Below, piece by piece: positions 3,629 through 59,548 of a stretch of 64,000 nucleotides of DNA (position 1 is its first letter; each line of letters opens with the position of its first letter). The stretch is taken from assembly GCA_030390025.1 (NCBI GenBank), contig JASTWF010000034.1:62001-126000 (forward strand), written 5' to 3'. The stretch comes from Squalus acanthias. Its lineage: Eukaryota. A program made the position numbers and the translations under genes. Below the pieces are notes generated by a model. It ran no database searches. It was given only the letters and a program-made list of their open reading frames with translations, and was not told the DNA's origin.

Positions 3629-3815
3629 GAATAAAAATGTTGGAGATGGTGCGATGGGTTTAGATTTCAGCACAGGGAGGAGGGAGAGTGTGTGGGATGG
3701 GGATTTACAGCTTTGGGGAACAAGAGAGGAAAGAATGTCCATAGAAACTAGAATTGTCTGTTCTGAATTTCTATCCTGTACTCACAGTGATGACTTTTGT
3801 AAACTCCTTATACAG

Positions 3816-4550
3816 AGTATTAGAAGAGGGGGAGGATTTACAGCCGGGAAACTCAAACCAAACATCACTTCAAGATCTGACAGAGGCACTCAATACAGCA
3901 GGACCCGAATATCATCGGCGTTTGAATGTGGAAGGAGAAATGTTTTAACTAGTTACACAACCTGAAAGCACATTGCACCAATCACATTGGGGGAAACAGT
4001 ACGCTTGTTCTGTGTGTGGACGAGGCTTCAACTGATCGTCCAACCTGGAGATTCACAAGGACACCCGCACCACGGAGAAACCGTGGAAATGTGGGGACAG
4101 TGGGAAGGGATTCAATTACCCGTCTGAGCTGGAAATTCATCGACGCAGTCACACCGGGGAGAGGCCGTTCACCTGCTACGTGTGTGAGAAGGGATTCACT
4201 CAGTTATCCACCCTGCAGATACACCAGCGAATTCACACCGGGGAGAGGCCGTTCACCTGCCCTGTGTGTGGGAAGGGATTAACTCAGTCATCTAATCTGC
4301 TGAGACACCAGCAAGGTCACACTGGTAGAGGCCATTCACCTGCTCCATATGTGGGAAGAGATTCTCTCAATTATCTGACCTTCTGTCACACCAGCGAGTT
4401 ATTACAGGGGAGAGGCCGTTCACCTGCTCCGTGTGTGGGAAAGGATTCAGCTGTCCATCCCACCTGCTGACACACCAGCGAATTCACAAGTGACTGCAGG
4501 GGTTGGATTCGGCTGTTATTGCGACTGTTAATCACATCCAGGTCTGAACC
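3816..4550 (+). pseudogene. C2H2 zinc-finger pseudogene (class A cassette, copy 1)
   Basis: Acceptor TATACAG ends 3815; leader deletion near 3945; TGA 4033; [11 protein letters not shown] at 4072; HTGERPF linkers; frameshift near 4326; terminal TGA 4491. Confidence 0.85.
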
Positions 4551-5725: not shown

Positions 5726-5729
5726 ATTG

Positions 5730-11664: not shown

Positions 11665-11980
11665 TCAGCCAATGAGGGAGCTCCGGGCTGTGCCCCGCCC
11701 ACTAGGTGCCGCAAGCCCCGCCCCTCACACACTCCGATTGTTGGAGTACCCGCCGCCCGCTCGGTCCTCCAGCCCCGCCCCGCTCTTCCTATTGGTCCGG
11801 AGCTCCCGTCAATCACCCGGGCAGTGTGAGCTGAGCATGCGCGGACCTTGGCAGCAGCCGCTGACACATCAGGTGAGAGAGCTCAGGGAGCGGGTTAATA
11901 AACCCCGGGGGGACGCGGGCTGCACACACCCCGAGTGCGGCCCCAGGCCCCATTATTAAAACACTCAACATTATCCGCCT
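11665..11980 (+). promoter_or_regulatory. Second copy of the promoter module (CCAAT, GC boxes, first exon/donor)
   Basis: Near-identical to 410-678; CCAAT at ~11669. Confidence 0.7.
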
Positions 11981-12051
11981 CCCCACAACTACCCGCCAGT
12001 TTAAGACACAAACTCCGGGACAACCAGGAAGTGCTGGGAAATCCCCAGCGA

Positions 12052-12534: not shown

Positions 12535-14030
12535 ATAACATCATAAGTATTAAAATAGAAAGGGATTGTCATCTTGGATAAAATAGGAGATCTGAAATTA
12601 GCTGGCGCTCCAGGTCCAGAAGATATCCACCCAAGGGTGTTTAAAGAGCTGGGACGGTGCTCTGTGAGCCCCTTGCCCATATCTTCACCAGTTCAATAGA
12701 GTCAGGGATTGATCCCTGAGATTGGAAGGTAGTTCACGTCATTTCCATTTTCAAAACAGGGAGAAGTCAGAGCCAGAGAACTACAGGCCCATCAGTGTGG
12801 TCTCGATCAGAAGGAAGATGCTTGAAGGGATCCTGAGAGATGCTGTTTATGGTCACTGGGGCAGGGAAGGATCCATTAGAAATACTCACACGGCTTCTGG
12901 AAAAGAAGGTCGCGTCCAACAAACTTGCCTTAGTCGGACGTGGGACTTGCCTGTTTACTCTGCTTGATGGATCAATATAAGATAGGGTAGACGATAGAGA
13001 ATCTGCTCATCTTAATGTTGTTGATGCTCAACTCTTGGACCTATTAATTAAATAATAAGACAAGGCGTTAGCTGGAATCTAACACCCCACATTCTCTCTG
13101 CTCCTCTACTCCTCTTAAAGTTTTACTATTTAGATTTTTTAATTGAATTGGGATGTGGACATCGCGGGCAAGGCCAGCATTTATTGCCCATCCCCAGTTG
13201 CCATTGAGAAGTTGGTCTTGAGCTGCCTTCATGAATCGCCACAGTGCTGTTATACAGGGAGTTCCAGGATTTGGAACCAGCGACGATGAAGGAACAGCGA
13301 TATATTTACAAGGCAGGATGGTGTGTGTAACTTGCAGGGGAACTTGCAGGTGGTGGTGTTCCCATGTGCCTGCTGTCCTTGTCCTTCTAGGTGGAAGAGG
13401 TCGCGGTTTTGGGAGGTGCTGTCGAAGAAGCCTTGGTGAGTTGCTGCAGTGCATCTTGTAGATGGTACACCCTGCAGCCACGGTACGCCGGTGGTGGAGG
13501 GAGTGAATGTTTAAGGTGGTGGATGGGGAGCCGATCAAGCGGGCTGCTTTGTCCTGAATGGTGTCGAGCCTCTTGAGTGTTGTTGGAGCCGCACTCATCC
13601 AGGCAAGTGGAGAGTACTTCCATCAGACTCCTGACTTATGCCTTGTAGATGTAGAAAGGCTTTGGGGAGTCAGGAGGTGAGACACTCACCGCAGAATATC
13701 CAGCCTCTGACCTGCTCTTGTAGCCACAGTATTTATGTGGCTGGTCCAGTTAAGTTTCTGGTCAATGGTAACCCCCAGGATGTTGATGGTGGGGGATTCG
13801 GTGATGGTAATGCCGTTGAATGTCAAGGGTCTGTGGTTAGACTCTCTCTTGTTGGAGATAGTCAATGCCTGGCACTTGTGTGGCACGAATGTTACTTGCC
13901 ACTTATCAGCTCAAGCCTGAATGTCATTCATATCTTGCTGCATGCGGGCACAGACTACTTCATTAACTGAGGAGTTGTGAATGGAATTGATCACTGTGCA
14001 ATCATCAGTGAACATCCCCACTTCTGACCT

Positions 14031-15420: not shown

Positions 15421-18361
15421 TGGCTGCAGGGTGACAATGCCTGGGAATTAAACATACCAGGTTATTTAACGATCAGGAAGGACAGGCAGGAAGGAAGGGG
15501 ATGTGGGGTGGCTCTGTTAATAAAGGAAGGAATCACTGTAATACAGAGTAATGATATTGGGTCAAAAAATCATGATAATGAAACAGTTTGGGTGGAGATA
15601 AGGAATAATAAGGGGAAAAAAACACTAGTGGGCGCAGTCTATAGGCCTCCGAACAGTTGCAACTCTGTTGGACGGAGTATCAATCAGGAAATAGTTGAGG
15701 CATGTAATAAGGGAACATCTATAATTATGGGGGATTTTAACTATCATATTAATTGGACAAATCAAATGGGACAGGGCTGCCTTGAGGATGAGTTCATTGA
15801 GTGTATTAGGGATGGGTTTCTTGAGCAGTATGTAACTGAACCGACCAGGGGGCAAGCAACCTTAGATCTGGTCCTGTGTAATGAGGCAGGATTAATTAAA
15901 AATGTCCTAGTAAAGGATCCCCTTGGAATGAGTGACCATAACATGGTTGAATTCCATATTCAATTAGAGGGTGAGAAGGTTGGATCTCAAACAAGCGTGC
16001 TAAGCTTGAATAAAGGAGACTATGAAGGTATGCGAGCGGAATTGAGTAGAGTGGATTGGGAAAATAGATTAAAGGGTAAGACGACACATGATCAGTGGTG
16101 TACATTCGAGGAGTTATTTTACAACTTCCAAAAACTATATATTCCACTGAAAAGAAAAGGGTGTAAAAGAAAGGACAGTCATCCGTGGCTAAGTAAAGAA
16201 ATTAAGGATAGTATTCGACTAAAAACAAGGGCATATAAGGTAGCGAAATCTAGTGGGAGGACAGAGGATTGGGAAAACTTTAAAAGGCAGCAAAAAATAA
16301 CAAAAAGATTGATTAAGAAAGGGAAGATAGATTATGAAAGTAAATTAGCAAAAAATATAAAAACAGATAGTAAGAGTTTTTATATTTATATAAAAAGAAA
16401 AAGGGTGGCTAAAGTAAATGTTGGTCCCTTAGAGGATGAGACCGGGAAATTAATGGTGGGAAATATGGAGATGGCAAAAACACTGAATGAATATTTTGTA
16501 TCAGTCTTTACAGTAGAGGACACTAAGAATATCCCAACACTGGACAAACAGGGGGCTATAGGGGGAGAGGAGCTAAACACGATCAAAATCACTAAGGAAG
16601 TGGTACTCGGTAAAATAATGGGACTCAAGGCGGATAAATCACCTGGACCTGATGGCTTACATCCTAGAGTCTTGAAGGAAGTGGCGGTAGGGATTGTAGA
16701 TGCATTGGTAATAATTTTTCAAAACTCCCTGGATTCCGCTCAGGTCCCGGCAGACTGGAAAACTGCTAATGTAACACCCTTATTTAAAAAGGGCAGTAGA
16801 CAGAAGGCTGGTAACTATAGACCGGTTAGCCTAACATCTGTGGTAGGTAAAATTTTGGAGTCCATTATTAAGGAAACAGTAACAGGACATTTGGATAATC
16901 ATAATTTAATAGGACAAAGTCAGCATGGTTTTACGAAGGGGAAGTCATGTTTGACAAATTTGCTGGAGTTCTTTGAGGAAGTAACATATAGAGTGGATAA
17001 AGGGGAACCAGTAGACGTAGTGTATTTAGACTTCCAAAAGGCATTTGACAAGGTGCCACACAAAAGATTATTGCTTAAGGTAAAAAATCACGGGATTGGG
17101 GGTAATATTCTGGCATGGATAGAGGATTGGCTATCTAACAGAAAGCAAAGAGTTGGGATAAATGGTTCATTCTCAGACTGGCAATCAGTAACTAGTGGTG
17201 TTCCACAGGGGTCAGTGCTGGGTCCCCAACTCTTTACAATCTATATTAACGATTTGGAGGAAGGGACCAAGTGTAACATATCAAAATTTGCAGATGATAC
17301 TAAGATGGGAGGGAAAGTAGTGAGTGAGGAGGACATAAAAAACCTGCAAGGGGACATAGACAGGCTAAGTAAGTGGGCAGAGATTTGGCAGATGGAATAC
17401 AACACTGGAAAGTGTGAGGTGGTGCACTTTGGCAGGAAAAATCCTAGAGCAATTTATTATCTTAATGGCAAGAAACTGGAGAGTACTGAAGTGCAAAGGG
17501 ATCTGGGGGTCCTGGTGCACGAAACTCAAAAGGTTAGTATGCAGGTGCAGCAAGTGATTAAGAAGGCAAATGGAATGTTGGCTTTCATTGCTAGGGGGAT
17601 AGAATATAAAAATAGGGAGGTATTGCTTCAGTTGTACAAGGTATTAGTGAGACCACACCTGGAATACTGCATACAGTTTTGGTGTCCTTACTTAAGGAAA
17701 GACATCCTTGCTCTCGAGGCAGTGCAAAAAAGGTTCACTCGGTTAATCCCGGGGATGAGGGGGTGGTCATATGAGGAGAGGTTGTGTAGATTGGGCCTCT
17801 ACTCATTGGAGTTCAGAAGAATGAGAGGCAATCTTATTGAAACATATAAGATTGTGAAGGGGTTGGATCGGGTGGATGCGGGGAGGATGTTCCCGATGAC
17901 GGGTGAGACTAGAACTAGGGGACATAGTCTTAGAATAAGGGGCTGCTCTTTCAAAACTGAGATGAGGAGGAACTACTTCACTCAGAGGGTGGTAGGTCCA
18001 TGGAATATGCTGCCACAAAAAGCTGTGCTACATCATTAAATAAATTTAAAACAGAAATAGACAGTTTCCTAGAAGTAAAGGGCATTAAGGGTTACGGGGA
18101 GCGGGCAGGAATTTGGACATGAGTCTAGGTTCGGATCGGTCATGGCCCTGTGGGTAGTGGAGCGGGCCCAGGGACCGTGTAGCCTGATTCTGCTCCTATT
18201 TCGTGTGTACAATTCTGTTAGATGCAGAAGATGGTTCTGTGATAGTAGATAGTAGATTGGCGGTTAGGATCAGATCAGCCATGATCTTATTGAATGGCGG
18301 AGCAGGCTCGAGGGGCCGATTGGCCTACTCCTGCTCCTATTTCTTATGTTCTTATGTTCTT
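15421..18361 (+). mobile_element. Young CR1 LINE, 5'-truncated inside the APE endonuclease; ORF2 open almost to its end
   Basis: YRPP, MGDFN and SDHN (APE) plus RT motifs; small deletion near 18027; (TTCTTATG)n tail at ~18341-18364. Confidence 0.95.
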
Positions 18362-18788
18362 ATGTTTGGATCAAGTCTGTAATGAGTTCTGGAGCCGAGT
18401 GGTCGCGGTGGAACCCAAACTGAACATCGGTGAGCAGGTTATTGGTGAGTAAGTGCCGCTTGACAGCACTGTCGACGACACCTTCCATCACTTTGCTGAT
18501 GATTGAGAGTAGAGTGATGGGGCAGTAATTGGCCGGATTGGATTTGTCCTGCTTTCTGTGGAGAGGACATACCTGGGAAATTTTCCACATTGTCTAAAGT
18601 CTCCTCCTTTGTCTCGGTGTCAGTTTTTGACTGATTCCGCTCTTGTGAAGCACCTTGGAACGTTTTACTTCGTTAAAGGCGCTGTGTAAATGTAAGTTGT
18701 TGTTGCTGTGCTACCATTGGCCTCAGCTTTTCCAGACAGAATCAGCCAGGGCCGGCGGCTGTGCTGCTCCCCATGGTCGAAATGCCGG

Positions 18789-19318
18789 CAGCACCTTCAG
18801 TATAGGCTCACAGCTCAGAATTAGCAATGTACTGGAGGGCTAACAGTGACTGGGGCCGAACCCCACCATCACACAGCACCTTCAGTATAGGCTCACAGCT
18901 CAGAATTAGCAATGTACTGGAGGGCAAACAGTGACTGGGGCCGAACCCCACCATCACACAGCACCTTCAGTATAGGCTCACAGCTCAGAATTAGCAATGT
19001 ACTGGAGGGCAAACAGTGACTGGGGCTGAACCCCACCATCACACAGCACCTTCAGTATAGGCTCACAGCTCAGAATTAGCAATGTACTGGAGGGCAAAGA
19101 GTGACTGGGGCCGAAGCCCACCATCACACAGCACCTTCAGTATAGGCTCACAGCTCAGAATTAGCAATGTACTGGAGGGCAAACAGTGACTGGGGCTGAA
19201 CCCCACCATCACACAGCACCTTCAGTATAGGCTCACAGCTCAGAATTACCAATTAGTGAGGTACTGGAGGGCAAACAGTGACTGGGGCCGAACCCCACCA
19301 TCACACAGCACCTTCAGG
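18789..19318 (+). repeat. 85-bp minisatellite, ~6 copies
   Basis: GCACCTTCAG recurs at 18791, 18876, 18961, 19046, 19131 and 19216. Confidence 0.93.
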
Positions 19319-19489
19319 AGTGAATTGGAGAAAAGTCCGAGCCTGCGATAAATGGGGATTACAAACAGCGAGGATGAGGCGATGAGAGAGTGTGTGGGAC
19401 GAGGGTTTTATAGCTCAGGAGGGGCAAGAGAGGAAAGAATGTTCCAGGGAAACGAGTACTGTCTGTTGAGAATTTCTACCCTGTACGTA

Positions 19490-19940: not shown

Positions 19941-19980
19941 TGCTATCTACAGTGATGACATTTGTAAACTCCTTTTACAG

Positions 19981-20640
<660 letters not shown>

Positions 20641-23039: not shown

Positions 23040-23470
23040 TTGTTCCTGTCTGGTGACAGTGGGACTACTCAGTGTCGCCCCTACCGGTGGTCAAAAAATG
23101 ATTACAGGAGCCAAGTGCGCAGGCGCAGGACGGGGCAGTGCTCTGAGCATGCGCAGTGCGAGTAGCAGAGCCGGGAGTGAAACGCAAGACACGCTCTCAG
23201 GAGGTGGTAGGAGTTTGTGGGCTCGGGGAGGAATTGGACCCGCGGCTGGGCTGGGAAGATTCATAAACACCCGGTGTCGGCCTCAGGCCCCAAACAAGAG
23301 CCCACAGGCCCCGTGTTTGCCCCGCGGTGACAGGCCCGGCCGCCCGGGTCAGCGGGGTCACTGGCCGCCATCTTGGACAGGCCGGGATCACGGCGCATGC
23401 GCGGCCATCTTGGCCAGGAACAGTGAGTGGGCGGGGCTTCAGGGTCCCAGTGACCAGGAGAGACAATCAT
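23040..23470 (+). promoter_or_regulatory. CpG-island promoter and non-coding first exon of ZNF copy 3
   Basis: NRF1-like GCGCAGGCGCA and GCGCATGCGC; YY1 GCCGCCATCTTG ~23364; donor-like CA|GTGAGT ~23423. Confidence 0.65.
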
Positions 23471-26437
23471 TGACTCATTGATTTTATTCTCACTCTGCAC
23501 ACAGCGGGTGTGGAACTGAACCCAACCAGAGTAGAGGGAGGGAGAAAACTGGGAGTGGAGGAAAGAAATGTTGGAGATAGTGCGATGGGTTTGGATTTCA
23601 GCACAGGGAGGAGGGAGAGTTTGTGGGACGGGGATTTACAGCTTTGGGGGAATAAGAGTGGGAAGGAGTTGTTGCTTTTTGCCTACACTACTTGTAGTGC
23701 TTTGTGTTACAGGTAGATATTTAATTAATCTAGATCAAGTAAGTAGTCAGGAAACGACACTGTAAACTAAGTTACCTAATTACAAATTAAATTAAATTAA
23801 ATAAATCAAGGTCATATAGGGATGGCAGTGCAGGTGGTGTGCCGCAACTGCAGCATGTGGGAGTTTGTGGAGAGCATTGTGATCCCGGACAACCACGTTT
23901 GCAGTAAGTGCCTGCATCTTGAGGAACTTCAGCTCAGAGTTTTTGAGCTGGAGTCTGAGGTGCAGACATTGCGGGGCATCATGGATGGGGAGAGTTACCT
24001 GGACACTTTGATCCAGGAGGCAGTTACACCCCTTAGGTTAGGTAGTGGTACAGGTCTGGTTAGTGGTCAGGGACAGGAGGGTGTGACTGCAACTCAGGCA
24101 GGTAAGGGGACCCCAGATGCAGTGCTGGAGGAGCCTCAGCCTTTACCTGCCTGGTGCCAGGGTTAAAGACATCTCCTCACGGCTGGAGAAGAAGTGGGAG
24201 GGGGAGGATCCAGTTGTCGTGGTCCACGTAGAAACCAACGACATAGGTAGAACTAGGAATAAGGTTCTGCTGAGGGAGTTTGAGGAGCTAGGATCCAAAT
24301 TAAAAAGCAGAACCTCAAATGTAATAATCTCTGGATTTTTACCTGAGCCACGTGCAAATTAGCGTAGGGACAAACAGATTAGAGGTTTAAATGCGTGGCT
24401 CAAAGACTGGTGTGGAAGGAAGGGGTTTCAGTTCATGGGGCACTGGCACCAGTACTGGGGAAAGAAGGAGCTGTTCCGTTGGGACGGGCTCCACTTAAAC
24501 CGGGCTGGGACCAGTGTCCTGGCGAACCAAATAACTAAGACAATAGACAGGGCTTTAATCTAATGAAGGGGGTGGTGGGAGGATTCAGGAAAGAGTAAAT
24601 TTAAAAGCAATGAGAGAAATGTAATGGCTCTAGAGCAGAGTAGAGTTTTGGGTAAAAATAAGCAGAGTGGGTCAGGAAGGGACAGAGAGCGTAACAAAGG
24701 TAATAAGACATCAGTGACTAAGGTGACATCAGGGAAAAATAGAAATAAGTCAAAGCTAAAGGCACTATATCTGAATGCGCGAAGCATTTACAACAAAATA
24801 GATGAATTAATAGCGCAGATAGAAATTAACAGGTTTGATCTAATAGCCATAACGGCGATGTGGTTGCAAAGTGGCCAAGGTTGGGAACTAAATATTCCAG
24901 GATACATAACTTTTAGAAGGGATAGGCAAAATGGAAAAGGAGGAGGGGTAGCCCTGATAATAAAGGATGGGCTAAAGACAGGAGAGAGAAAGGATCTGAG
25001 CTCTGAAAATCAGGAAGTAGAATCAGTTTGGGTGGCGCTAAGAAACAGCAAGGGGCAGAAAATATTGGTGGGAGTTGTTGATAGGCCCTCAAACAGTAGT
25101 TGTAATGTAGGGCAGAGTATAAATCAGGAAATTAGAGGCGCATGTAACAAGGGTAATACAGTGATCATGGGGGACTTTAATCTACATATAGACTGGGCAA
25201 ACCAAATTTGCAGTAATAGTGTGGAGGACGAATTCATGGAATGTATGCAAGATAGTTTTCTAGATCAATATGTTGAGGAACCAACGAGGGAACAGGCTAT
25301 TTTAGATCTAGTATTGTGCAATGAGAAAGGGTTAATTAATAACCTTGCAGTAAAGGGGCCTTTAGGGAAGAGTGACCATAATATGATAGAATTTTATATT
25401 GAGTTTGAAAGTGACTTAGTTAAATCCGAAACTAGGGTCTTAAATCTAAACAAAGCAAACTATGTAGGTATGAGGGGCGAGATGGCTAAGGTAGATTGGG
25501 GAACTACATTAAAAGGTATGACAGTGGATGAGCAATGGCTAGCGTTAAAGAATTAATACATAAGTTACAACAAATATACATTCCTTTAAGGCACAAAAAC
25601 CCCACAGGAAAGTGGTCCAACCATGGCTAACAATAGCAGTTAAAGATAGTATTAGATCAAAGGAAGAGGCTTATAATGCTGCCAAAAAGAGTTGTAAGCC
25701 TGAGGATTGGGAGGATTCTAGAATTCAGCAAAGGAGGACCAAGAAATTGATAAAGGAAGGGAAAATAGAATATGAGTGTAAACGAGCGAGAGACATAAAA
25801 ACAGACTGTAAAAGCTTCTATAGGTATGTAAAAAGAAAAAGATTAGCAAAAATGTGGGTCCCTTACAGGCTGAGACAGGAGAAATTATAATGGGGAATAA
25901 GGACATGGCAGAGAAATTAAACAAATACTTTGTGTCTGTCTTCACAGAAGAAGACGCAAAAAACTTCCCGGAAATAATGAAGTTCCAAGGGTCTAACGAG
26001 AATGAGGAACTGAAAGAAATTAGTATTAGTAAAAAAGTAGTACTGGAGAAATTAATGGGACTGAAAGCCAATAAATCCCCTGGACCTGATGGCCTACATC
26101 CTAGGGTTTTGAAAGAGGTGGCTATAGAGATAGTGGATGCATTGGTTGTCATTTTCCAAAATTCCATAGATTCTAGAACGGTTCCCACAGATTGGAAGGT
26201 AGCAAATGTAACCCCACTATTTAAGAAAGGAGGGAGAGAGAAACCGGGGAACTACAGACCAGTTAGCCTGACATCAGTAGTAGGGAAAATGCTAGAATCT
26301 ATTATTAAGAACATGGTAACAGGGCACTTAGAAAATAATAATAGGATTGGGCAGAGTCAACATGGATTTATGAAAGGGAAATTGTGTTTGACAAATCTGT
26401 TAGAATTTTTTGAGGTTGTAACTAACAGAATAGATAA

Positions 26438-26741
26438 CACGGTGGCATAGTGGTTAGCACTGTTGCCTCACAGCGCCAGGGACCCGGGTTCGAATCCGGC
26501 CTCGGGTGACTTTCTGTGTGGAGTTTGCACATTCTCCCCCGTGTCTGTGTGGGTTTCCTCCGGGTGCTCCGGTTTCCTCCCACAGTCCAAAGATGTGCGG
26601 GTTAGGTTGATTTGGCTATGATAAATTGACCCTTAGTGTTAGGGGGGATTAAATACGTGGGGTTACGGGGATAGGGTGGGATATGTGTCGGTGCAGGCTC
26701 GATGGGCCGAAATGGCCTCTATCTGCACTGTGGGGATTCGG
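26438..26741 (+). mobile_element. tRNA-derived V-SINE (HE1-like)
   Basis: A box TGGCATAGTGG, B box GGTTCGAATCC, V-domain GGGTTTCCTCCGGGTGCTCCGGTTTCCTCCCACAGTCCAAAGA; GATAA on both flanks. Confidence 0.88.
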
Positions 26742-27239
26742 TGATAAGGGGGAACCAGTGGATGTGTATTTGGATTTTCAGAAGGCTTTTGATAAAGTCC
26801 CACTCAAGAGGTTGTTAAACAAAATTAGGGCTCATGGGATTGGGGGTAATATACTAGCATGGATTGAGGATTGGTTAATGGACAGAAAACAGAGAGAAGG
26901 AATAAGCAGGTCATTTTTGGGTTGGCAGGCTGTAACTAGTGGGGTACTGCAAGGTTCAGTGCTTGGGCCTCAGCTATTCACAATCTGCATCAATGATTTG
27001 GATGAGGGGACCAAATGTAATATATCCAAGTTTGCTGATGATACAAAGCTGGGTGGAAATGTAAGTTGTGAGGAAGATGCAAAGAGGCTTCAAGGAGATA
27101 TAGACAGGCTAAGTGAGTGGGCAAGAACATGGCAAATGGAATATAATATGGAGAAATGTGAAGTTATCCACTTTGGTCAGAAAAATAGAAAAGCAGAATA
27201 TTTTTAAAATGGTGAGAGATTGGGAAATGTTGGTGTTAA

Positions 27240-27677
27240 AAACATAGAAACTAGGAGCAGGAGTAGGCCATTCGGCCCGTTGAGCCTGCTCCACCATTCA
27301 ATACGATCATGGCTGATCATCCAAATCCAGTACCCTGTCCCTGCTTTCTCACACAGAATCCCCATCGAGCCTGAACCGACACATATCCCACCCTATCCCC
27401 GTAACCCCACGTATTTAATTCCCCCTAACATATCCCATCCTATCCCCGTAACCCCACATATTTAATCCCCCCCCTAACACTAAGGGTCAATTTATCATAG
27501 CCAAATCAACCTAACCCGCACATTTTTGGACTGTGGGAGGAAACCGGAGCACCCGGCGGAAACCCACGCAGACACGGGGAGAATATGCAAACTCCACACA
27601 GACAGTCACCCGAGGCCAGATTCGAACCCGGGTCCCTGGCGCTGTGAGGCACCAGTGCTAACCACTATGCCACCGTG
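27240..27677 (-). mobile_element. V-SINE (HE1-like) with CR1-type 3' tail
   Basis: Reverse complement of the 26438 SINE family plus a CR1 tail. Confidence 0.88.
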
Positions 27678-28847
27678 TTCAGAGGGACCTGGGTGTCCTT
27701 GTACACGATTCACTGAAAGTTAACATGCAGGTACAGCAAGCAATTAGGAAAGCAAATGATATGTTGGCCTTTGTTACAAGAGGATTTGAGTATAAGAGTA
27801 AAGACGTCTTACTGCAATTATATAGGGCCCTGGTAAGACCACACCTGGAGTATTGTGTACAGTTTTGGTCTCCTTACCAAAGGAAGGTTATACTTGCCGT
27901 AGAGGGAGTGCAACGAAGGTTCACCGGACTGGTTCCTGCGATGGGGGGATTGTCCTATGAGGAGAAATTAAGTAGAATGGGCCTATATTCTCTAGAGTTT
28001 AGAAGAATGAGAAGTGATCTCATTGAAACATATAAAATTCTTACAGGGCTTGACAGGGTAGATGCAGGGAGGATGTTTCCCCTGGCTGGGGAGTCTAGAA
28101 CCAGGGGTCACAGTCTCAGAATAAGGGGTCAGCCATTTGGGACTGAGATGAGGAGAAATGTCTTCACTCAGAGGGTGGTGAATCTTTGGAATTCTCTACC
28201 CCAGGGAGCTATGGAGGCTCAGTCGTTGAATATATTCAAGATAGAGATCGATAGATTGTTGAATATTAAGGGAATCAAGGGATATGGGGATAGTGCAGGA
28301 AAGTGGAGATGAGGTAGAAGATCAGCAATGATATTGAATGGCGGAGCAGGCTCGAGGGCCCAAATGGCCCACTCCTGCTCCTATTTCTTATGTTCTTATG
28401 AAAGAAAGTTCCATAGAAACTAGAATTGTCTGTTCTGAATTTCTATCCTGTACTTACAGTGATGACTTTTGTAAACTCCTTTTACAGGGTATTAGAAGGG
28501 GAGGATTTACAGACGGGAAACTCAAACCAAATATCACCAAGATCTGACAGTCACTCGATTCATCAGGACCCGAATATCATCGGCCTTTGAATGTGGAAGG
28601 AGAAATGTTTGTCTGTTCTGTCTGTGGGAAAAAATTTCAAACATCAGTGTGACTGGAAAAGCACCGAGACACACACACCCGAGTGAGAGTGTTCCAGTGC
28701 ACTGACTGTGGAAAGAGCTTTAACCAGTTACACAGCCTGAAAAAACATCGCACCATTCACAGCGGGGAGAAACCGTACACGTGTTCTGTGTGTGGACGAG
28801 GCTTCAACTGATCGTCCAACCTGGAGAGACACAAGGACACCCGCACC

Positions 28848-29690
28848 ACGGAGAAACCCTGGAAATGTGGGGACTGTGGGAAGGGATTCAGCGCCCCGTC
28901 CCAGCTGGAAATTCATTGGCGCAGTCACACCGGGGAGAGGCCGTTCACCTGCTCCGTGTGTGGGAAGGGATTCACTTGTTCTTCCCACCTCACTGAACAC
29001 CAGCGAGTTCACACTGGAGAGAGACCATTCATCTGCTCTGTGTGTGGGAAAGGATTCATTAAATCATCTCACCATCTGAGACACCAATCTGTTCACACAG
29101 AGGAGAGGCCGTTCACCTGCTCCTTGTGCGGGAAGGGATTCTCAAATGCATCCACCCTTCTATCTCACCAGCGTTTTCACACTGAGGAGAGGCCATTCAC
29201 CTGCTCCGTGTGTGGGAAGGGATTCACTCTGTTATGCCACGTCACTGCACACCAACTTGTTCACACCAATAGGAGACCGTTTAAATGCTCTGACTGTGAG
29301 AAGCACTATAAAAGCAGAAAAGATCTGATGAAACACCAACGCACTCACACTGGGGAGAGGCCGTTCACCTGCTCCAAGTGTGGGAAGGGATTCACTCGTT
29401 CATCCCATGTGCTGAGACACCAGCGAGTTCACACTGGGGAGAGGCCGTTCACCTGCTCTGTGTGTGGGAAGGGATTCACTCGGTCATCCAGCCTGCTGAC
29501 ACACCAGCGAGTTCACACTGGAGAGAGACCGTTCACCTGCTCCGTGTGTGGGAAGGGTTTCACTTGGTCATCCACCCTGCTGAATCACCAGCGAGTTCAC
29601 ACTGGGGAGAGGCCGTTCACCTGCTCCGTGTGTGGGAAGGGATTCACTCGGTCATCCAACCTGTTGAATCACCAGCGAGTTCACGACTGA
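28848..29690 (+). CDS. C2H2 zinc-finger protein, ~10 fingers (class A, copy 3); start uncertain (ACG 28848, first in-frame ATG 29328)
   Basis: Open frame [14 protein letters not shown]...HQRVHD* with HTGERPF linkers; exon acceptor ends 28487; in-frame TGA at 28650 and 28809 upstream; AATAAA 29811. Confidence 0.7.
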
Positions 29691-29934
29691 CTGCAGGGGT
29701 TGGATTCTGCTGTTGTTGCCGCTTATAATCACATCCAGGACTGAACGATGTTCATTCTGACAATTGGGGTTTGTTTCCTCTATAACTGGGCTGGAGTTTA
29801 ATATCTGACAAATAAATCAACTTTGTTTCGAACACACAGTGTGTCGAGTCCTTGATTTCTCCCATAATAAGAGGAGACTAATTGTTGTCCTGTTACCGAC
29901 TCTTCCTTTTTTGGGTCGTTTCTCCTTTGTTAAA

Positions 29935-30320
29935 TAAAGACTTGTATTTATGCAGCACCTCACACGACCTCAGGACGTCCCAAAGTGCTTTACAGCCAAT
30001 GAAGTACAACAACATCAAAGTAAATTTGAAGAGCATTCACTGTTGCAGGAAATGCAGCAGCCAATTTGCGCACAGCAAGCTGCCGCGAACAGCAATGTGA
30101 TAATGGCCAAACAATCTGTTTTAGTGATGTTGATTGAGGGCTGATGGGGCCTCGGCTCAACAACTCATCCAAAAGATGGCACCTCTGACAGTGCCGCACT
30201 CCCTCAGTACTGCATTGGAGTGTCGGTCCAGATTTTGTGCTCAAGTCTCTGGAGGTGGGCTTGATCCCACAACCTCCTGACTCAGAGACGAGAGTGCTCC
30301 CACTGAGCCTCGACTAACAC
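29935..30320 (-). mobile_element. Deu-domain SINE (SacSINE1-like)
   Basis: Reverse complement has a tRNA-like head and the GCACTGTCAGAGGTGCCATCTTTTGGATGAG core. Confidence 0.75.
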
Positions 30321-30450
30321 CCGATCATTACCCTAGATTATTTCAGTTCTCATACCTTTGGTTACTCTCATGGACAAGTTCCAGCTCCCCATATCATCCA
30401 GGGTGCCTCTCCCAGCCTTGGTATCCAGAAAAGATATCGATAACACACCC

Positions 30451-30860
30451 CTGTACCTGCCCTGGGAGTGTTTGATGGGACAGTGTAGAGGGAGCTTTAC
30501 TCTGTATCTAACCCGTGCTGTACCTGCCCTGGGAGTGTTTGATGGGACAGTGTAGAGAGAGCTTTACTCTGTATCTAACCCGTGCTGTATTGCCCTGGGA
30601 GTGTTTGATGGGACAGTGTAGAGGGAGCTTTACTCTGTATCTAACCCGTGCTGTAACTGCCCTGGGAGTGTTTGATGGGACAGTGTAGAGGGAGCTTTAC
30701 TCTGTATATAACCTGTGCTGTACCTGCCCTGGGAGTGTTTGATGGGACAGTGTAGAGGGAGCTTTACTGTGTATCTAACCCGTGCTGTACCTACCCTGGG
30801 AGTGTTTGATGGGACAGTGTAGAGGGAGCTTTACTCTCTATCTAACCCGTGCTGTACCTG
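30451..30860 (+). repeat. 67-bp satellite, ~6 copies
   Basis: Unit CTGTACCTGCCCTGGGAGTGTTTGATGGGACAGTGTAGAGGGAGCTTTACTCTGTATCTAACCCGTG; period seen at 30451 and 30518. Confidence 0.93.
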
Positions 30861-31490
30861 ACTGGAGAGTGCTTCAGGCAGACACTCGGTGCTCAGAACA
30901 CCCCATTCCCCAGCACTGACATCCATCAGCTCTGTGAGAACATTTAACCCAAAGATAAGAGAAACCCCTCAGTTTCTCCCCGGACACAGATCCGGAGGGG
31001 CAGTGAGTGTCCTGAACATTTTTGTACGGTGTGCTCGATAGTTCATCCCTGGGTCTGAGCCTTTTGGTGATGATTTGAATTTGATGCCCTCTCGTTCCTG
31101 ACTCACCGACTGGTGGAAATAGATTTTCCTCATTTACCTGATCAAATTCTGAACACCTCGCTCAGATCTCCAATTACCCTTTGTTCTAATGAAAAGAGCC
31201 CCAGTTTCTCTAATCTCTCCTGATAACTAAAGGCTCTCTTCCCTGGTATCATCTCAGTGAATCTCTCTGCACCCTCTCCACGGCCTTGACATCCTTCCTG
31301 GTGTAAGATGCCCCAAAACTTGACCCAATATTCGAACTGCAGCCTAACCAATGATTTGTACAGGTTTACATGACCTCTGCCCTTTTGTACTCTCCACCCC
31401 TATTTATAAAACCGAGGATCCCTCGTGCTTTTTTAAACTACTTTATCAACTTGTCCTCCCACTTTTAAAGGTTTGTGTATCTGAACCGCT

Positions 31491-32269
31491 TGTAGGTTTT
31501 AGAGATATTAACATAACATGGTTAAAATACATTGTCATAAAATGTCTGATATAATGTGTATTGTGGGAAAGAGAAGTTTAGTCTGAGTTAGAAACTCAAA
31601 CAGGCGATTCACTGCAGACAGGTCGCCATGGCAACACTGATAAGACATTCCATTCACTGAATCGACTGGTTGGAATCTGTAATCAGATCAGGGGAAAGAA
31701 CAGGGTTTGTCTGTTATTAACCACAATATAAGCTTAAACCAGAGTGAGTAATAGAATAGACTAGATTATAATGTGTGATGTTTATACCTATCATTGTGAA
31801 ACTGTAAGAAATAACATAATTAACAGCAGGCAGGGTAGTTTAGGGATAATGAGAAAATTACTGAAGAAAAGTCACTGCTGGGATCCATGGAATGTGTCCT
31901 TGTAAATCACAGATTAGAGAAATTCCAGCTGTCTTTCTCACTTCCTGCCAAAACCCAGAGTCCGGTGCCAGAGATGAATCACTGCAGGGTATAAAAGTGA
32001 GGGGATCCTGATGTAAGGGGGCAGTCGGGACTGGAGACACCAGAGATCAAGCTCAGGGCGCCCGAGGTTCCATCCAGCGGGCTGACCTCGTGTAAGTTAC
32101 TGTGGACACGCGGGACTTGCATGTTTGCTGTGATAGAGGATCACTATAAGGTACGGTAGAGGGCAGATAATCTGCTCATCTTATATTTCTTAATAAGGTA
32201 TTAAAGATGCTGAGACTAGACTCTCGATCCTGCTAATTAATAAGACAAGGCGTTAGCTCGAATCTTACA
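31491..32269 (+). mobile_element. Solo LTR (~780 bp) inserted in a CR1 fragment
   Basis: TGTA...TACA ends; flanks CCGCT / CCTCT (5-bp TSD with one mismatch); TATAAAA ~31990; ATTAAA ~32200; related 3' piece at ~12935-13084. Confidence 0.7.
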
Positions 32270-39890: not shown

Positions 39891-39978
39891 CCCATGTTTT
39901 ACTGTGATGGATGAATGTAATGGATTTACTATGTAATTGATGAGTTGTATAAGTATTATTGATTTGAATTAAAAGATT

Positions 39979-40320
39979 CACCCCGAGTGCGGCCCCAGGC
40001 CCCATTATTAAAACACTCAACATTATCCGCTTCACAAACACCCGGGGTGGGCCTCAGGCCCCGAACAAGAGCCTCCGGGCCGGGCGTTTGCCCCGAGCGG
40101 GGCGGCAGCTGCGGGGCTTTCCCCCGGTGACAGGCCCGGGTTAACGGCCGCCATCTTGAGAGGCTCAGGGGGCAGCAGGGCGCATGCGCGGCCCCCTTGG
40201 CCAGGAACCAGGAGAGAATCTTGGCAATTTCTATCCTGGACTCACAGTCATGGCTTTTGGAAACTCCTTTTACAGGCTGTGAGAAGGGCAGCATTTACAC
40301 ACCGCAAACTCACACCAACA
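39979..40320 (+). pseudogene. Relic ZNF cassette 5' end (first exon, short intron, acceptor, ~45 bp of finger-exon leader)
   Basis: YY1 and NRF1 motifs, then AAACTCCTTTTACAG acceptor at 40261-40275 and a degenerate leader that is then truncated. Confidence 0.6.
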
Positions 40321-41824: not shown

Positions 41825-42591
41825 TAAGAGTCTAAATGGGCTGGAGGAGCAGAGGGATCCAGGGATACAGACACACAAATCACTAAAAGTAGCGACACAC
41901 GTTAATAAGGCCATTAAAAAAAAGCACTGAGGTACATTCCTAAAGGAGCCTTCTGTTCCGTGCCCAGGAGCTCTGAACCATGGCAGAGAGCGGCTGGGAC
42001 ACGTTTCTCACAGGCCTCGAGATTAACCTGCACGGCGACTTTGCTGTCAGTGAAGAGAGACGAGAAAGACCAAAGTGCCGTTTGCCCCTCTCAGTGTGGC
42101 CCTGAAGGACTGTGTCCAGGCTGAAGTTCTGTTCCCGCCGTACGATCCTCCCCCAGATTGTCCTTTCTGAGCTCCAGCCAGGTGATGCTAAACACTCAGG
42201 TGGGAAAGAAGAAAATCTACAACAATGTGTTTAAAACAAAGCTGGTTTATTTGACATCTATCCAAAATATTAAACTCCAGCCCAGTTACAGGAGTTAATA
42301 ACATCAGCAGAAACAAGCTCCAACTGTCAGAATGAACATGGTTCAGTCCTGGATGTGATTAACAGCAGCAGTAACAGCAGAATCCAACCCCTGCAGTCAC
42401 TTGTGAACTCGCTGGTGTCTCAGCAGGGTGGGATGAACGAATGAAACCCTTCCCACACACGGAGCAGGTGAACGGCCTCTCCCCAGTGTGAACTCGCTGG
42501 TGTCTCAGCAGGGTGGATGAACGAGTGAATCCCTTCCCACACACGGAGCAGGTGAACGGTCTCTCCCCAGTGTGAACACGTTGATGGAATG

Positions 42592-43851
42592 TCAATTCCC
42601 CGGAACTTTTATAGCACTTCCCACAGTCCAAGCATTTAAAAGGTCATCAGTGTGTGTGTGCTGATGATTCAGCAGGTGGGATGACTGAGTGAATCCCTTC
42701 CCACACTCAGAGCAGCTGAACGGCCTCTCCCCAGTGTGAACTCGCTGGTGTCTCAGCAGATGCGTTTTGGTTTTAAATCTCTTCTCACAGTCAGAACATT
42801 TAAAAGGTCTCTTATCAGTGTGAACAAGTTGGTGTTCAAGCAGGTGGGATGAACGACTGAATCCGATCCCACACTCAGAGCAGGTGAACGGCCTCTCCCC
42901 AGTGTGAGTGCGCTGGTGTGTCAGAAGGTGGGATGACTGAGTGAATTTCTTCTCACACACGGAGCAGGTGAATGGCCTCTCCCCAGTGTGAGTACGCTGG
43001 TGTTCAGTGAGGTCAGATGATCGCCTGAACCCAGTCCCACAGTGAGAGCACCTGAACGGTCTCTCGTCAGTGTGAACTCGCCGGTGTTTCAGCAGGGTGG
43101 ATGACTGAGTGAATCCCTTCCCACACACGGGGCAGGTGAATGGCCTCTCCCCAGTGTGAGTGCACTGGTGTGTCAGAAGGTTGGGTGACTGAGTGAATCG
43201 CTTCCTACACACTGAACAGGTGAACGGCCTCTCCCCAGTGTGAGTGCGCTGGTGGACAGTGAGGTCAGATGATCGCCTCAACCCAGTCCCGCAGTGAGAG
43301 CACCTGAACGGTCTCTCGTCAGTGTGAATAAGTTGATGGCATGTCAGTTCCCTGGAACTTTTAAAGCAGTTCCCACAGTTCAAGCAGTTAAAAGGTCTCT
43401 CATCAGTATGAACTCGCTGGTGATTCAGTAGGTAGGATGACTCAGTGAATCCCTTCCCACATTCAGAGCAGGTGAACGGCCTCTCCCCAGTGTGAACATG
43501 CTGGTGTCTCAGTAGGTGAGATGACTGAGAGAATCCCTTCCCACACACAGGGCAGGTGAACAGCCTCTCCCCGGTGTGAAGTCGCTGGTGAGTCAGCAGG
43601 TTGGATGACTGAGTGAATCCCTTCCCACACATGGAGCAGGTGAACGGCCTCTCCCCAGTGTGAGTGTGCTGGTGTGTCAGCAGGTCGGATGAACGAGTGA
43701 ATCCCTTCCCACACTCAGAGCAGGTGAACGGCCTCTCCCCGGTGTGACTGCGCTTGTGTCTCGATAGGCCAGATGATTGGCTGAATCCTCGTCCACACAC
43801 AGAACATGTGTACGGTTTCTCCCCGCTGTGAACAGTGCTTTTTGCTTCCAT
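42592..43851 (-). CDS. C2H2 zinc-finger protein, 14 in-frame fingers (class B); 3 more fingers lie behind frameshifts, ancestral stop at 42397
   Basis: AACATGG start at 43851, [16 protein letters not shown]...; acceptor at 43958; 4-bp deletion near 42645 and +1 insertion near 42430; reverse AATAAA near 42246. Confidence 0.8.
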
Positions 43852-44249
43852 GTTCAGAGGCCGGTGATATTCAGATCCGATGAGTCGAGTGACTGTCAGA
43901 TCTTGACGTGATGTTTGGTTTGAGCTTACCGACTGCAAATCCTCCCCTTCTAATACCCTGTAAAATTAATTTAAAACAGGGAGCGTGAGAGAGAACCCAC
44001 AAGAAAACAAAGGCAGGTTGTGAAATTGAGCTCAGTGAATCTGGTCATTTGTGGGGCCGGCACTAGAAAAAAGTCACCATGAAAGCTGCCGGATTGTCAT
44101 AAAAACCCAACTGGTTCACTGATGTCCTTCAGAGCAGGGAACCCGCCACCTGGTCTGGGCCTACACAAGACTCTGGCCTCTATGGGAGGAGAGAGAGAGA
44201 GAGAGAGAGGTGGGAGTGGGAGGGGAGGAGAGGGGGCGAAGGAAAGGAA

Positions 44250-51425: not shown

Positions 51426-51636
51426 CAGCAGCTGGAGCCTGAAAATCAGCTTCACTGCCCCTAGGCTGGGAAAGGGGAAAATTAAACAACATTTTGTCTC
51501 TGATCCTTTTCTAAACTCATTTTACAGGGTTATAGAAGTGGAGCAGTTACAGGCGGGAAGCTCAGACCAAACATCACGTCAAGATCTGACAGAGTCGCTC
51601 GATTCATCCGGACCTCAATATCATCGGTCTTTGCAC

Positions 51637-53778
51637 ATGGAAGGAGAAAGCAGCGATCGCAGCGATGACAAACCGCACACGTGTTCGGTGTGTGGACGCG
51701 GATTCAGCCGATCGCCTGACCTGGTGAGACACGTGCACCGTCACACCGGGGAGAAACCGGGTAAAGGTGGGGACGGTGGGAAGGGATTCAGTTCCCCGTC
51801 TGCAATAGAAGTTCAACGGCGCAGTCGCACCAGGGACAGTCCGTTCACCTGCTCCGTGTGTGGAAAGGGATTTGTTTGTTCATCCCACCTGGAAACACAC
51901 CAGCTTGTTCACACTGACGAGAGGCCATTTACATGCTCTGACTGTGGGAAGAGCTTTAAAAGCCCCCAGGATCTGAAGCGACACCAGCGAGTTCACACTG
52001 ATGAGCGACCGTTTATATGTTCTGACTGTGGGAAGAGCTTTAAAAGCCCCCAGGAGCTGAAGGGACACCAGCTTGTTCACACTGATGAGCGACCATTTCA
52101 GTGTTCTGACTGTGGGAAGAGCTTTAAAAGCCCCCAGGAGCTGAAGGGACACCAGCGAGTTCACACTGACGAGAGACCATTTCAGTGTTCTGACTGTTGG
52201 AAGAGCTTTAAAAGCCCCCAGGAGCTGAAGCGACACTAGTTTGTTCACACCGATGAGAGACCATTTCAGTGTTCTGACTGTGGGAAGAGCTTTAAAAGCT
52301 CCGGGGATCTGAAGGGACACCAGCGAGTTCACACTAATGAGAGGCCGTTTACATGTTCTGACTGTGGGAAGAGCTTTAAAAGTTCCGGGGATCTGAAGGG
52401 ACACCAGCTTGTTCACACTAATGAGAGGCCATTTACGTGTCCTGACTGTGGGAAGAGCTTTAAATGCTCCGGGGATCTGAAGGAACACCAGCTTGTTCAC
52501 ACTAATGAGAGGCCGTTTACATGTCCTGACTGTGGGAAGAGCTTTAAGAGTTCTGGGGATCTGAAGGGACACCAGCGAGTTCACACTGCAGAGAGGCCAT
52601 TTACATGTTCTGACTGTGGGAAGAGCTTTAAACGCCCCAGGGATCTGAAGGGACACCAGCTTGTTCACACTGCAGAGAGGCCATTCACCTGCTCCGTGTG
52701 TGGGAAGGGATTCTTGCAGTCCTGCATACTGCTGACACACCAGCTTGTTCACACTGACGAGAGACCATTTAACTGTTCTGACTGTGGGAAGAGCTTTAAA
52801 AGCCCCGGGGAGCTGAAGGTACACCAGCGAGTTCACACTGACGAGAGACCCTTTAAATGTTCTGAGTGTGGGAAGAGCTTTAAAAGCCCCTGGGATCTCA
52901 AGCAACACCAGCGAGTTCACACTGGAGAGAGGCCGTTCACCTGCTCCGTGTGTGGGAAGGGATTCGCTCGGTCAACCAACCTGCAGAGACACCAGCGCCT
53001 CCACACTGGGGAGAGGATATTCATCTGCTCTGAATGTGGGAAGGGATTCACTGAATCATCCACCCTGCAGACACACCAGCTTGTTCACACTGACGAGAGA
53101 CCCTTTAAATGTTCTGACTGTGGGAAGAGCTTTAAAAGCTCCCGGGATCTGAAGGGACACCAACACCTACACACTGGGGAGTGGCCGTTCACCTGCTCCG
53201 TGTGTGGGAAGGGATTCGCTCGGTCCTCCAACCTGCTGACACACCAGCTTGTTCACACTGGGGAGGCGCCGTTCACCTGCTCCGTGTGTGGGAAGGGATT
53301 CACTCAGTCATCCCACCTGCTGAGACACGAGCGAGCTCACATTGGGGAGAGACCCTTTAAATGTTCTGACTGTGGGAAGAGCTTTAAAAGCCCCGGGGAT
53401 CTGAAGGGACACCAGCGAGCTCACACTGACGAGAGACCCTTTAAATGTTCTGAGTGTGGGAAGAGTTTTAAAAGTCCCTGGGATCTCAAGCAACACCAGC
53501 GAGTTCACACTGGAGAGAGACCGTTCACCTGCTTCGTGTGTGGGAAGGGATTCGCTCGGTCAACCAACCTGCAGAAACACCAGCTCCTCCACACTGGGGA
53601 GAGGCCGTTCACCTGCTCCGTGTGTGGGAAGGGATTCACTGAGTCATCCACCCTCCTGTCACACCAGCTTGTTCACACTGACGAGAGACCCTTTAAATGT
53701 TCTGACTGTGGGAAGAGCTTTAAAAGTTCTAAGAACCTTAAGGGACACCAGCGTCTTCACACTGATCATAGAATCTAA
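51637..53778 (+). CDS. C2H2 zinc-finger gene of ~25 finger units with one in-frame TAG (52237-52239); truncated gene or recent pseudogene (class B)
   Basis: Acceptor ends 51527; CACATGG start, [16 protein letters not shown]; the same frame continues past the TAG into ORF 52696-53778; final stop lies in an antisense CR1 tail. Confidence 0.75.
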
Positions 53779-57840: not shown

Positions 57841-58489
57841 GAAAATCATTGACTCATTGATTTTATTCTCACTCTACACAACTGGTGTAGAACTGAACCC
57901 AACCAGAGTAGAGGGAGGGAGAAAACTGGGAGTAGAGGAAAGAAATGTTGGAGATGGTACGATGGGTTTGGATTTCAGCACAGGGAGGAGGGAGAGTGTG
58001 TGGGACGGGGATTTACAGCTTTGGGGGAACAAGAGAGGAAAGAATATTCCATAGAAACTAGAATTGTCTGTTCTGAATTTTTATCCTGTGCTTACAGTGA
58101 TGACTTTTGCAAACTCCTTTTACAGGGTATTAGAAGAGGAAGATTTACAGACGGGAAACTCAAACCAAACATCACAACAAGATCTGACAGAGTCACTCCA
58201 TTCATCAGGACCTGAATATCATCGGCCTTTGAATGTGGAAGGAGAAATTTTTCTCTGTTCTGTCTGTGGGAAAAGATTTCAAACATCAGTGTGACTGGAA
58301 AAGCACCGAGACACACACACCCGAGTGAGAGTGTTCCAGTGCACTGACTGTGGAAAGAGCTTTAACCAGTTACACAGCCTGAAAAAACATCGCACCATTC
58401 ACAGTGGGGAGAAACCGTACACGTGTTCTGTGTGTGGACGAGGCTTCAACTGATCGTCCAACCTGGAGAGACACAAGGACACCCGCACC

Positions 58490-59548
58490 ACGGAGAAACC
58501 GTGGAAATGTGGGGACTGTGGGAAGGGATTCAGTTGCCCATCACACCTGGAAACTCCTCGACGCAGTCACACCGGGGAGAGGCCATTCACCTGCTCCGTG
58601 TGTGGAAAGGGATTCTCTCACTCATCCTACCTGATCAGACACCAGCGAGTTCACACTGGGGAGAGGCCGTTCTCCTGTTCCGTGTGTGGGAAGGGATTCA
58701 CTCATTCAACCACACTGCTGCAACACCAGCGAGTTCACACTGGGGAGAGACCGTTCACCTGCTCCGTGTGTGGGAAGAGATTCAACCATTCAACCACACT
58801 GCTGCAACACCAGCGAGTTCACACTGGGGAGAGACCGTTCACCTGCTCCGTGTGTGGGAAGAGATTCACTCAGTCATCCAACCTGCTGAAACACCAACTT
58901 GTTCACTCTGATAAGAGACCTTTTAAATGTTCTAAGTGTGAGCTGAGCTTTAAAAGTGCAAGTGGTCTGCTGAGACACCAACGCACTCACACCGGGGAGA
59001 GGCCATTCACCTGCTCCATGTGTGGGACGGGATTCACTAATTCATCCAACCTGCTGACACACCAGCGAGTTCACACTGACGAGAGACCTTTTAAATGCTC
59101 GGACTGCGGGAAGTGCTATAAAAGTTCTGGGGAACTGACGTGCCATCAACGTGTTCACACTGACCAGAGACCGTTCAGGTGCTCTCACTGTGGGACTGGG
59201 TTCAGGCAATCATCTGAACTCACTGTCCACCAGCGCACTCACACTGGGGAGAGGCCGTACACCTGCTCCGTGTGTGGGAAGGGATTCACTCGCTCATCCC
59301 ACCTCACTGGTCATCAACTTGTTCACACTGATGAGAGACCTTTTAAATGTTCTGACTGTGAGAAGAGCTTTAAAAACAAAAGGAAACTGATACAACACCA
59401 ACGCACTCACACTGGGGATTGGCCATTCATCTGCTCCATGTGTGGGAAGGGATTCACTCATTCATCCGCCCTGCTGACACACCAGCGAGTTCACAAGTCA
59501 CTGCAGCGGTTAGATTCTGCTGTTATTGCTGCTGTTAATCACATCTAG
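58490..59548 (+). CDS. C2H2 zinc-finger protein, ~12 finger units (class A, copy 6); start uncertain (ACG 58490, first in-frame ATG 59018)
   Basis: Acceptor ends 58125; in-frame TGA 58292 and 58451; open frame TEKPWKCGD...[18 protein letters not shown]. Confidence 0.72.

Follow-up and report, generated by a model that had tools for sequence, protein, structure and literature searches.

In Squalus acanthias, an intact array of C2H2 zinc fingers is preceded, in the same reading frame, by a zinc-finger-like leader that contains two TGA stop codons at DNA-contact positions. This arrangement raises the question whether leader and array are translated as a single protein or, if not, at which codon translation of the array begins. 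It was addressed by computational analysis of a 64,000-nt stretch of DNA (the window) and of related copies in the genome and in sequence records of other organisms. The explanation that we hold to be the probable one is that the leader represents three dead fingers, inherited by ~2,000 copies, and that the array would be translated from the next codon, which is either ACG or ATG.

The gene that carries the leader (the 28k gene) and the other copies in the window comprise the following features:

23051..23500, + strand: predicted promoter in a CpG island, and exon 1 of the 28k gene; motifs GCGCATGCGC (23393) and GCCATCTT (23367, 23404), which we label NRF1/YY1
23423..28487, + strand: predicted intron of the 28k gene, based on consensus sites (GTGAGT donor, TTTTACAG acceptor)
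28488..28604, + strand: 5' part of exon 2, in common with class B genes according to sequence comparison
28591..28686, + strand: uORF1, 31 codons, out of frame, weak context, pN/pS 0.97
28605..28652, + strand: uORF2, MFVCSVCGKKFQTSV followed by a stop, 15 codons, ending at TGA1 (28650-28652), pN/pS 1.4
28605..28847, + strand: dead-finger leader of 243 bp with three degenerate C2H2 fingers, read as putative 5' UTR
28634..28733, + strand: quiet 100-nt core, defined by change rates, with TGA1 and an imperfect inverted repeat (28641-28709)
28809..28811, + strand: TGA2, helix position -1 of dead finger 3; CGA in 293 of the 1,926 copies counted
28848..28850, + strand: ACG in the context ACC-ACG-G, predicted near-cognate start; ATG in 477 of 1,733 copies
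28848..29690, + strand: intact 280-codon ORF with 10 C2H2 fingers (frame reading, Pfam), ending at the stop common to the family (29688)
29811..29816, + strand: AATAAA; predicted 3' UTR of ~130-140 nt
58118..59548, + strand: class A paralog (58k copy) with ATT for the upstream ATG, ACG at 58490 and a 352-codon ORF
19973..20487, + strand: class A paralog (20k copy) with a frameshifted leader, a collapsed and frameshifted array, and ACG at 20343
3808..4493, + strand: class A paralog (4k copy) with a 110-bp leader deletion, a frameshifted array, and ACG at 4072
51520..53772, + strand: class B paralog without leader fingers 1-2, with ATG at 51637 and CGA at the TGA2 site
42397..43979, - strand: class B paralog with ATG at 43851

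The basic intron of the family measures ~300 bp and is enlarged in the 28k gene by inserted repeats. Pfam identified a zf-C2H2 array with TGEKP-type linkers and yielded no KRAB, SCAN or BTB match in any of the three ORFs scanned. Dead finger 3 of the leader, in addition to TGA2, lacks its second His. No ATG occurs between 28608 and the ACG at 28848, and an out-of-frame ATG is located 17 nt past the ACG. In the finger frame, the 5' part of exon 2 was not constrained as protein (pN/pS 1.2-1.3 when distinct variants are counted, 0.63 from raw counts). In the family majority, this part has an open frame of ~40 codons that continues into the leader (28488-28649), and it is translated in gene models of other sharks; it is probably a remnant of an older N-terminal region. 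A step in sequencing depth near 28488 in four runs cannot rank gene parts and was discarded as evidence for splicing or expression.

Several other features of the window were recorded. CpG islands with GCGCATGCGC and/or GCCATCTT motifs were found at 23051-23500, 57501-57850, 1-800, 39951-40250, 49351-50100 and 51101-51450; they lie near most ZNF copies of the window, some in opposite orientation, which suggests shared bidirectional promoters. A truncated family member at 40040-40320 consists of promoter, acceptor and exon 5' part without a finger array. Minisatellite arrays with units of 39, 63, 46, 85 and 67 bp occur between promoters and ZNF exons at 627-3600, 4914-5826, 11929-12627, 18704-19338 and 30451-30923. 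Near-identical repeat copies at 15613-18123 and 61363-63874 (97-100% in the pieces listed), to which a repeat in the intron of the 28k gene is ~72-80% alike, probably represent a recently active retroelement. Downstream of the array (29688-29760 and paralogs), the first 90 nt past the shared stop are 3.5-8% diverged and contain an in-frame reading of 13 residues; several copies that lack the shared stop use this tail as their C-terminus.

What the original prediction had read directly from the letters was largely borne out. TGA1 was found at 20147, 28650 and 58292 in the context GTG-TGA-CTG, and TGA2 at 4033, 20304, 28809 and 58451, with CGA at the corresponding site of a class B paralog (51709). 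Reading of the frame placed TGA1 at helix position +3 and TGA2 at helix position -1, and the segments 28650-28850 and 58292-58492 differed by exactly one mismatch (28763, C/T). The claim that the leader stays in frame with the array held for two of the four window copies (28k and 58k) and not for the other two: in the 20k copy, 2 bp of leader finger 2 are deleted, and in the 4k copy ~110 bp of the leader, including TGA1, are gone and a separate 1-bp deletion is present. In the 58k copy, whose leader remains in frame, the upstream ATG is replaced by ATT.

The number of copies proved far larger than the four paralogs initially proposed, as exact 25-28-mers of the leader occurred ~1,600-2,000 times in the genome and reversed-pattern controls gave 0 matches. 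Genome-wide pattern searches, whose copy counts may be inflated by uncollapsed haplotypes, yielded 2,023 exact matches around TGA1 (TGA in 1,979, changed in 44), 1,633 copies with TGA and 293 with CGA at the TGA2 site, 1,733 exact pattern matches for the codon after the leader, and 1,504 matches, a few of them probably due to chance, for a 17-base pattern of class B, which lacks leader fingers 1-2 and starts with ATG. The leader belongs to ~2,000 gene copies in the genome. TGA2 is not fixed, contrary to the initial description, and its proposed origin by CpG decay fits the CGA allele of class B. At the TGA2 site, class B copies carry CGA or CAA, and decay of CGA yields TGA, so that stop codons at contact positions need no special cause. 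These comparisons showed that both TGAs are shared by descent and are inherited scars in dead zinc fingers.

Paralogs are many and clustered, with variable contact residues and kept Cys/His ligands. The family tree is star-like with short internal branches, four-gamete violations affect 29-79% of marker pairs, and linkage decays over a few hundred bases. Frequency estimates exclude the 30 best BLAST loci and 3 duplicates; those 30 loci were used in the within-subfamily and close-pair tests. Two subfamilies differ in structure from the copies described above. One class B subfamily (51637-53772 and others) has a common 16-residue N-terminal start, which may be effector-like, and a degenerate second finger that is almost unchanged in about a dozen of 35 class B copies. 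In a long-array subfamily (16-22 fingers), the TGA2 site is occupied by a sense codon, and helix position -1 of the first array finger holds a stop.

No coding constraint was found in the leader. In 99 copies that were not chosen by leader identity, the pN/pS ratio at non-CpG sites was 1.18 (356 N, 83 S) and 51 of 59 leader indels were frameshifting. The ratio was 0.99 in copies with intact arrays, and none of the six frames was constrained (0.96-1.72). While the family-majority leader is in frame with the array, net frameshifts preceded intact arrays in 23 of 52 copies in a first sample, and in 10 of 47 in an overlapping second sample, for which another gap penalty was used; the count in the first sample leaves out 7 of 99 copies that lacked the shared tail. 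Frequent frameshifts had been named in the original prediction as evidence against a role of the leader. Recoding of the TGAs by readthrough, selenocysteine insertion or RNA editing, as a result of which leader and array would form one protein, is therefore very improbable: an in-frame majority leader and a TGA1 that is followed by C and kept in nearly all copies agree with it, but two stops would have to be passed upstream of a finger that also lacks a His, in a frame that is unconstrained and often shifted. The leaky stop context UGA-CUA/CUG is met by TGA1 only (TGA2 reads TGA-TCG). TGA1 is conserved to the same extent as its neighbours, and its low number of changes (44 of 2,023) was rejected as special because about a third of leader codons were likewise unchanged in a conditional sample (mean 180/4516).

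A search for SECIS elements gave 0 Rfam matches at E<=1 in 28300-31500. Both TGAs were the majority letters in contigs of four other organisms, in which no other letter reached 3% at TGA1 or at the G and A of TGA2, so that no A>G signal of editing was seen at either stop; these data are contigs from sequencing runs of which the RNA origin is only guessed, and their summed depths were used solely for the majority letter. A protein search with the leader retrieved only generic ZNFs and one catshark model, with lengths of 198-632 residues. One Scyliorhinus gene model aligned across the leader, and no close full-length leader-plus-array protein was present among the 49 candidates of 198-632 residues. 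The TGAs are almost certainly not recoded, and the leader reads as a dead-finger 5' UTR.

As an alternative to recoding, the original prediction had proposed a switch based on uORFs or nonsense-mediated decay. Junction-dependent decay is unlikely, as both stops appear to lie in the last exon. A uORF does exist; only 76 of 84 copies retain its ATG, and no purifying selection on uORF peptides was detected (pN/pS 0.97-1.43), which argues against a conserved-peptide uORF.

The codon directly behind the leader (28848-28850), missed by the original prediction, is ACG or ATG in the context ACC-NNN-G. This context is not independent evidence for initiation, since it is inherited from the TGEKP linker. 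Genome-wide, the site reads ACG in 1,183, ATG in 477, ACA in 54 and another codon in 19 of 1,733 copies. On an 82-copy tree built without CpG sites, from which 5 of 87 copies without the shared tail had been left out, 22 ACG/ATG changes and 1 ACG/ACA change were counted, and the nine other CpGs of the leader showed 45 and 41 changes in total (mean ~5). A second set gave 19 ACG/ATG changes on 91 tips. These results demonstrated that ATG recurs across the tree through CpG transition. Two related observations were not used as support. The depletion of non-CpG changes at the start codon (19/1,733, versus 109/1,972 at the neighbouring CGC codon) was rejected because of the similar third of leader codons without change, and the deficit of ACA is weak when taken alone, as 3.1% falls inside the 0-17% range of other leader CpGs.

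Of the Cys/His codons, 40 of 901 were lost in the leader and 3 of 314 in the first finger next to it (p=0.002). Counted as events on the tree, 32 losses occurred in 12 leader codons versus 3 in 4 first-finger codons (p=0.03). The same held within ACG copies, in which 11 of 950 ligand codons had changed in the arrays versus 21 of 497 in their own leaders (p=0.0005). In 13 independent ACG-ACG pairs, differences were found at 3 of 1140 ligand sites and 15 of 2368 finger core sites, compared with 41 of 1852 silent sites and 56 of 3135 sites of non-coding exon; relative to the leader rate, ligand change in these pairs was not significantly lower (p=0.08; ligand plus core p=0.21). Together, these data showed that coding-type constraint begins at the first finger after the ACG/ATG codon. 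The pN/pS ratio of the finger-1 backbone versus the family majority was 0.8-1.2. A within-subfamily test (17 copies, two of them divergent), with an array pN/pS of 0.77, was too mixed for use.

Arrays were intact in 35 of 49 ATG copies versus 42 of 82 ACG copies (p=0.028), in sampled regions that were partly picked from pattern matches and in which the ATG share may be raised. Among the 42 intact ACG arrays, 13 contain no Met at all and only 6 contain a Met within the first 84 residues. The remaining 40 of the 82 ACG arrays were broken, finger 1 was broken in 7 of 49 ACG copies with open later fingers, and arrays were also intact in 7 of 12 ACA and 3 of 3 ACC copies. ACG was the majority codon in this genome and, at 59-89% of summed contig depth, in each of the four other organisms. 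With regard to C-to-U editing at ACG, the ATG share was 11-39% in contigs guessed to be RNA and 41% in a large run of unrecorded kind, values that have no matched DNA for comparison.

Database proteins start with MEKPWKC in Mustelus and Chiloscyllium, and show TTEK in Heterodontus and Pristiophorus and TVEK in Scyliorhinus and Heterodontus. T at the start position is consistent with ACG and is no proof of it. These five genera span both shark superorders, and the leader-array arrangement is therefore old. A downstream hairpin that could aid initiation at ACG was sought, and no strong one was found (z +1.13 for 28848-28927). Start of the ATG copies at the codon after the leader is very likely. 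For the ACG copies, we lean narrowly, on sequence evidence, towards ACG being a working start in a substantial share of them. A search of the literature, with most subscription papers outside its reach, returned nothing on this leader or on ACG starts in shark ZNFs.

The leader had also been described as ultra-conserved and as being under nucleotide-level constraint or homogenised. The former term was too strong: relative to the family majority, leaders differed at ~2% of non-CpG and 6-10% of CpG sites, and only a 100-nt core (28634-28733) was clearly quieter (1.2-1.4%). The latter proposal was partly supported, by this core and by a leader that changes more slowly than the flanking non-coding exon. 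In close paralog pairs, divergence was 23/2912 (0.79%) in the leader versus 56/3135 (1.8%) in the flanking non-coding exon, a ~2.3-fold difference (p=0.0006). On singletons, the leader was ~30% below the intron (56/8276 versus 74/7507, p=0.03), and the whole leader was rejected as ultra-conserved since a 3.5-fold contrast between intron and leader fell to ~1.4-fold.

Among 94 fully covered copies, the core showed 0.81 changes per site, about half the rate of its flanks and compared with 1.4-2.3 in intron, acceptor, exon 5' part, 5' half of the uORF, finger 3 and finger-1 backbone. A permutation of the best window, which had been picked after seeing the data, gave 0/5,000; the differences from the finger-1 backbone (p=0.15) and the acceptor (p=0.11) were not significant. 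The singleton rate of the core (0.43, versus 0.33-0.60 elsewhere) was not low and rates were flat across regions; what is missing from the core is therefore old variants shared between copies, and not new ones. Such a deficit is expected from gene conversion as well as from selection on amplifying lineages. A hairpin fold is predicted for the core (z -2.0 to -2.5), and folding of the whole leader is unremarkable (z 0.09). Paired and unpaired sites of the hairpin change alike, compensatory changes in its stem did not occur as a pattern (22 of 26 variant types break pairs, 4 keep them), small indels occur inside the core, and an Rfam search gave four weak matches far below the gathering score. 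Neither a reading frame nor the hairpin explains its slow change. Leaders of intact genes were 1.6-1.9% diverged versus 2.7-2.8% for broken ones, and the core was the best-kept part of one catshark model.

These observations can be combined in a model in which about two thirds of the copies are predicted to have a weak ACG start and over a quarter a normal ATG. Ribosomes would pass, or reinitiate after, the two short uORFs, and scanning ribosomes would meet the near-cognate ACG ~195 nt after TGA1 and start there inefficiently, resulting in low output. ACG copies would then be low-output genes under weaker selection, which deamination of the CpG would repeatedly turn into full-strength ATG genes that are kept more often. 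For the quiet core, preservation would act on the nucleotides themselves, through its role as a shared binding site or through gene conversion. An extended version, which we regard as rather unlikely, envisages more than 1,000 standby ZNF genes, in which ACG and the uORFs of the common dead-finger 5' UTR hold output low while fingers diversify, mutation of a hypermutable CpG, by which ACG becomes ATG, turns individual genes fully on, and the core provides family-wide control.

The main rival to ACG initiation is that ACG copies are untranslated pseudogenes, transcribed or silent, of a birth-and-death family in which only the ATG and class B genes make protein. In that case, amplification, gene conversion and the slow mutation of sharks would have kept the leader, an inherited scar, uniform. 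The star-like tree, the four-gamete violations, the breakage of about half of the ACG arrays along with intact arrays in most ACA copies, and a singleton rate of the leader that is only ~30% below the intron, and equal across regions in another set, all agree with this proposal. Moreover, as linkage is lost over a few hundred bases, ACG arrays could stay clean without being translated, through conversion from ATG or class B genes. However, in ACG-ACG pairs the rate of change at ligand and core codons is 3-8 times below that of silent sites and of the flanking non-coding exon, and a functionless CpG would have to persist across lineages for ACG to be the majority in all four other organisms. 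We consider the pseudogene proposal somewhat unlikely. Compatible with the ACG-start explanation, and in our view possible though doubtful, is a role of the core as a selected cis element through which all class A genes are co-regulated, as a putative DNA site bound by a repressor or chromatin writer, or as a putative RNA site for a protein or small RNA. Its low rate of change with the permutation result, the lower leader divergence of intact genes and its preservation in the catshark model point in this direction; its post hoc delimitation, normal singleton rate, non-significant difference from two other regions, indels and hairpin-breaking variants do not, and a conversion hot spot would give the same pattern.

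The 28k family is a tandem poly-C2H2 ZNF family and not a KRAB-ZNF, readthrough gene or selenoprotein. Lineage-specific families of this type include the tetrapod KRAB-ZNFs and the cyprinid FiNZ-ZNFs (Wells et al., 2023, PMC10547256), with which, as they are described there, the shark family shares clustering, thousands of copies, an array in the last exon, variable contacts, kept ligands and many broken copies. It differs in its shared dead-finger leader, in the lack of a KRAB, SCAN or BTB match in the three scanned ORFs and in the absence, from most copies, of an ATG at the head of the array. The main text of PMC10547256 contains no mention of "shark", "chondrichth" or "cartilag"; its supplements may hold shark ZNF counts. 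KRAB families have been reported as lost in cartilaginous fishes (PMC8455134).

Other vertebrate genes, for example DDX17 and WDR26, are known to initiate at ACG in good context (Ivanov et al., 2011, PMC3105428), and the 28k family may, by analogy, work like such genes. Its ACG resembles these non-AUG starts in being a near-cognate codon with a purine at -3 and G at +4. The cases given in PMC3105428 are mostly N-terminal extensions of single genes, whereas the shark ACG is the predicted main start of more than 1,100 paralogs, is preceded by two uORFs and is turned into ATG by CpG decay. Binding of ZNF274/KAP1/SETDB1 to the 3' ends of human ZNF genes (PMC2999557) provides a precedent for regulation of a whole ZNF family by one factor via finger-exon sequence; unlike those sites, the shark candidate site is located in dead fingers upstream of the ORF. 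In zebrafish, C2H2-ZNF mRNAs undergo Znf598-dependent no-go decay via collisions on tandem fingers, and blocked initiation stabilised a reporter (PMC11620358). This decay, demonstrated in zebrafish only, offers a possible reason for low initiation in the shark family: speculatively, it might spare ACG mRNAs collision-triggered decay. In the text available for PMC11620358, no link to uORFs or ACG starts was found.

The ACG/ATG start and the quiet core are what this analysis adds. Should the ACG start fail, the locus would be a birth-and-death ZNF cluster of the ordinary kind, its leader a relic. If ACG initiation holds, most genes of this very large shark family are absent from, or truncated in, ATG-based annotation, and the family-wide non-AUG start would be of a form not found in the literature searched. 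It would also offer a candidate answer to the question how a vertebrate without KRAB tolerates thousands of new DNA-binding proteins, namely by low default output combined with a mutational on-switch.
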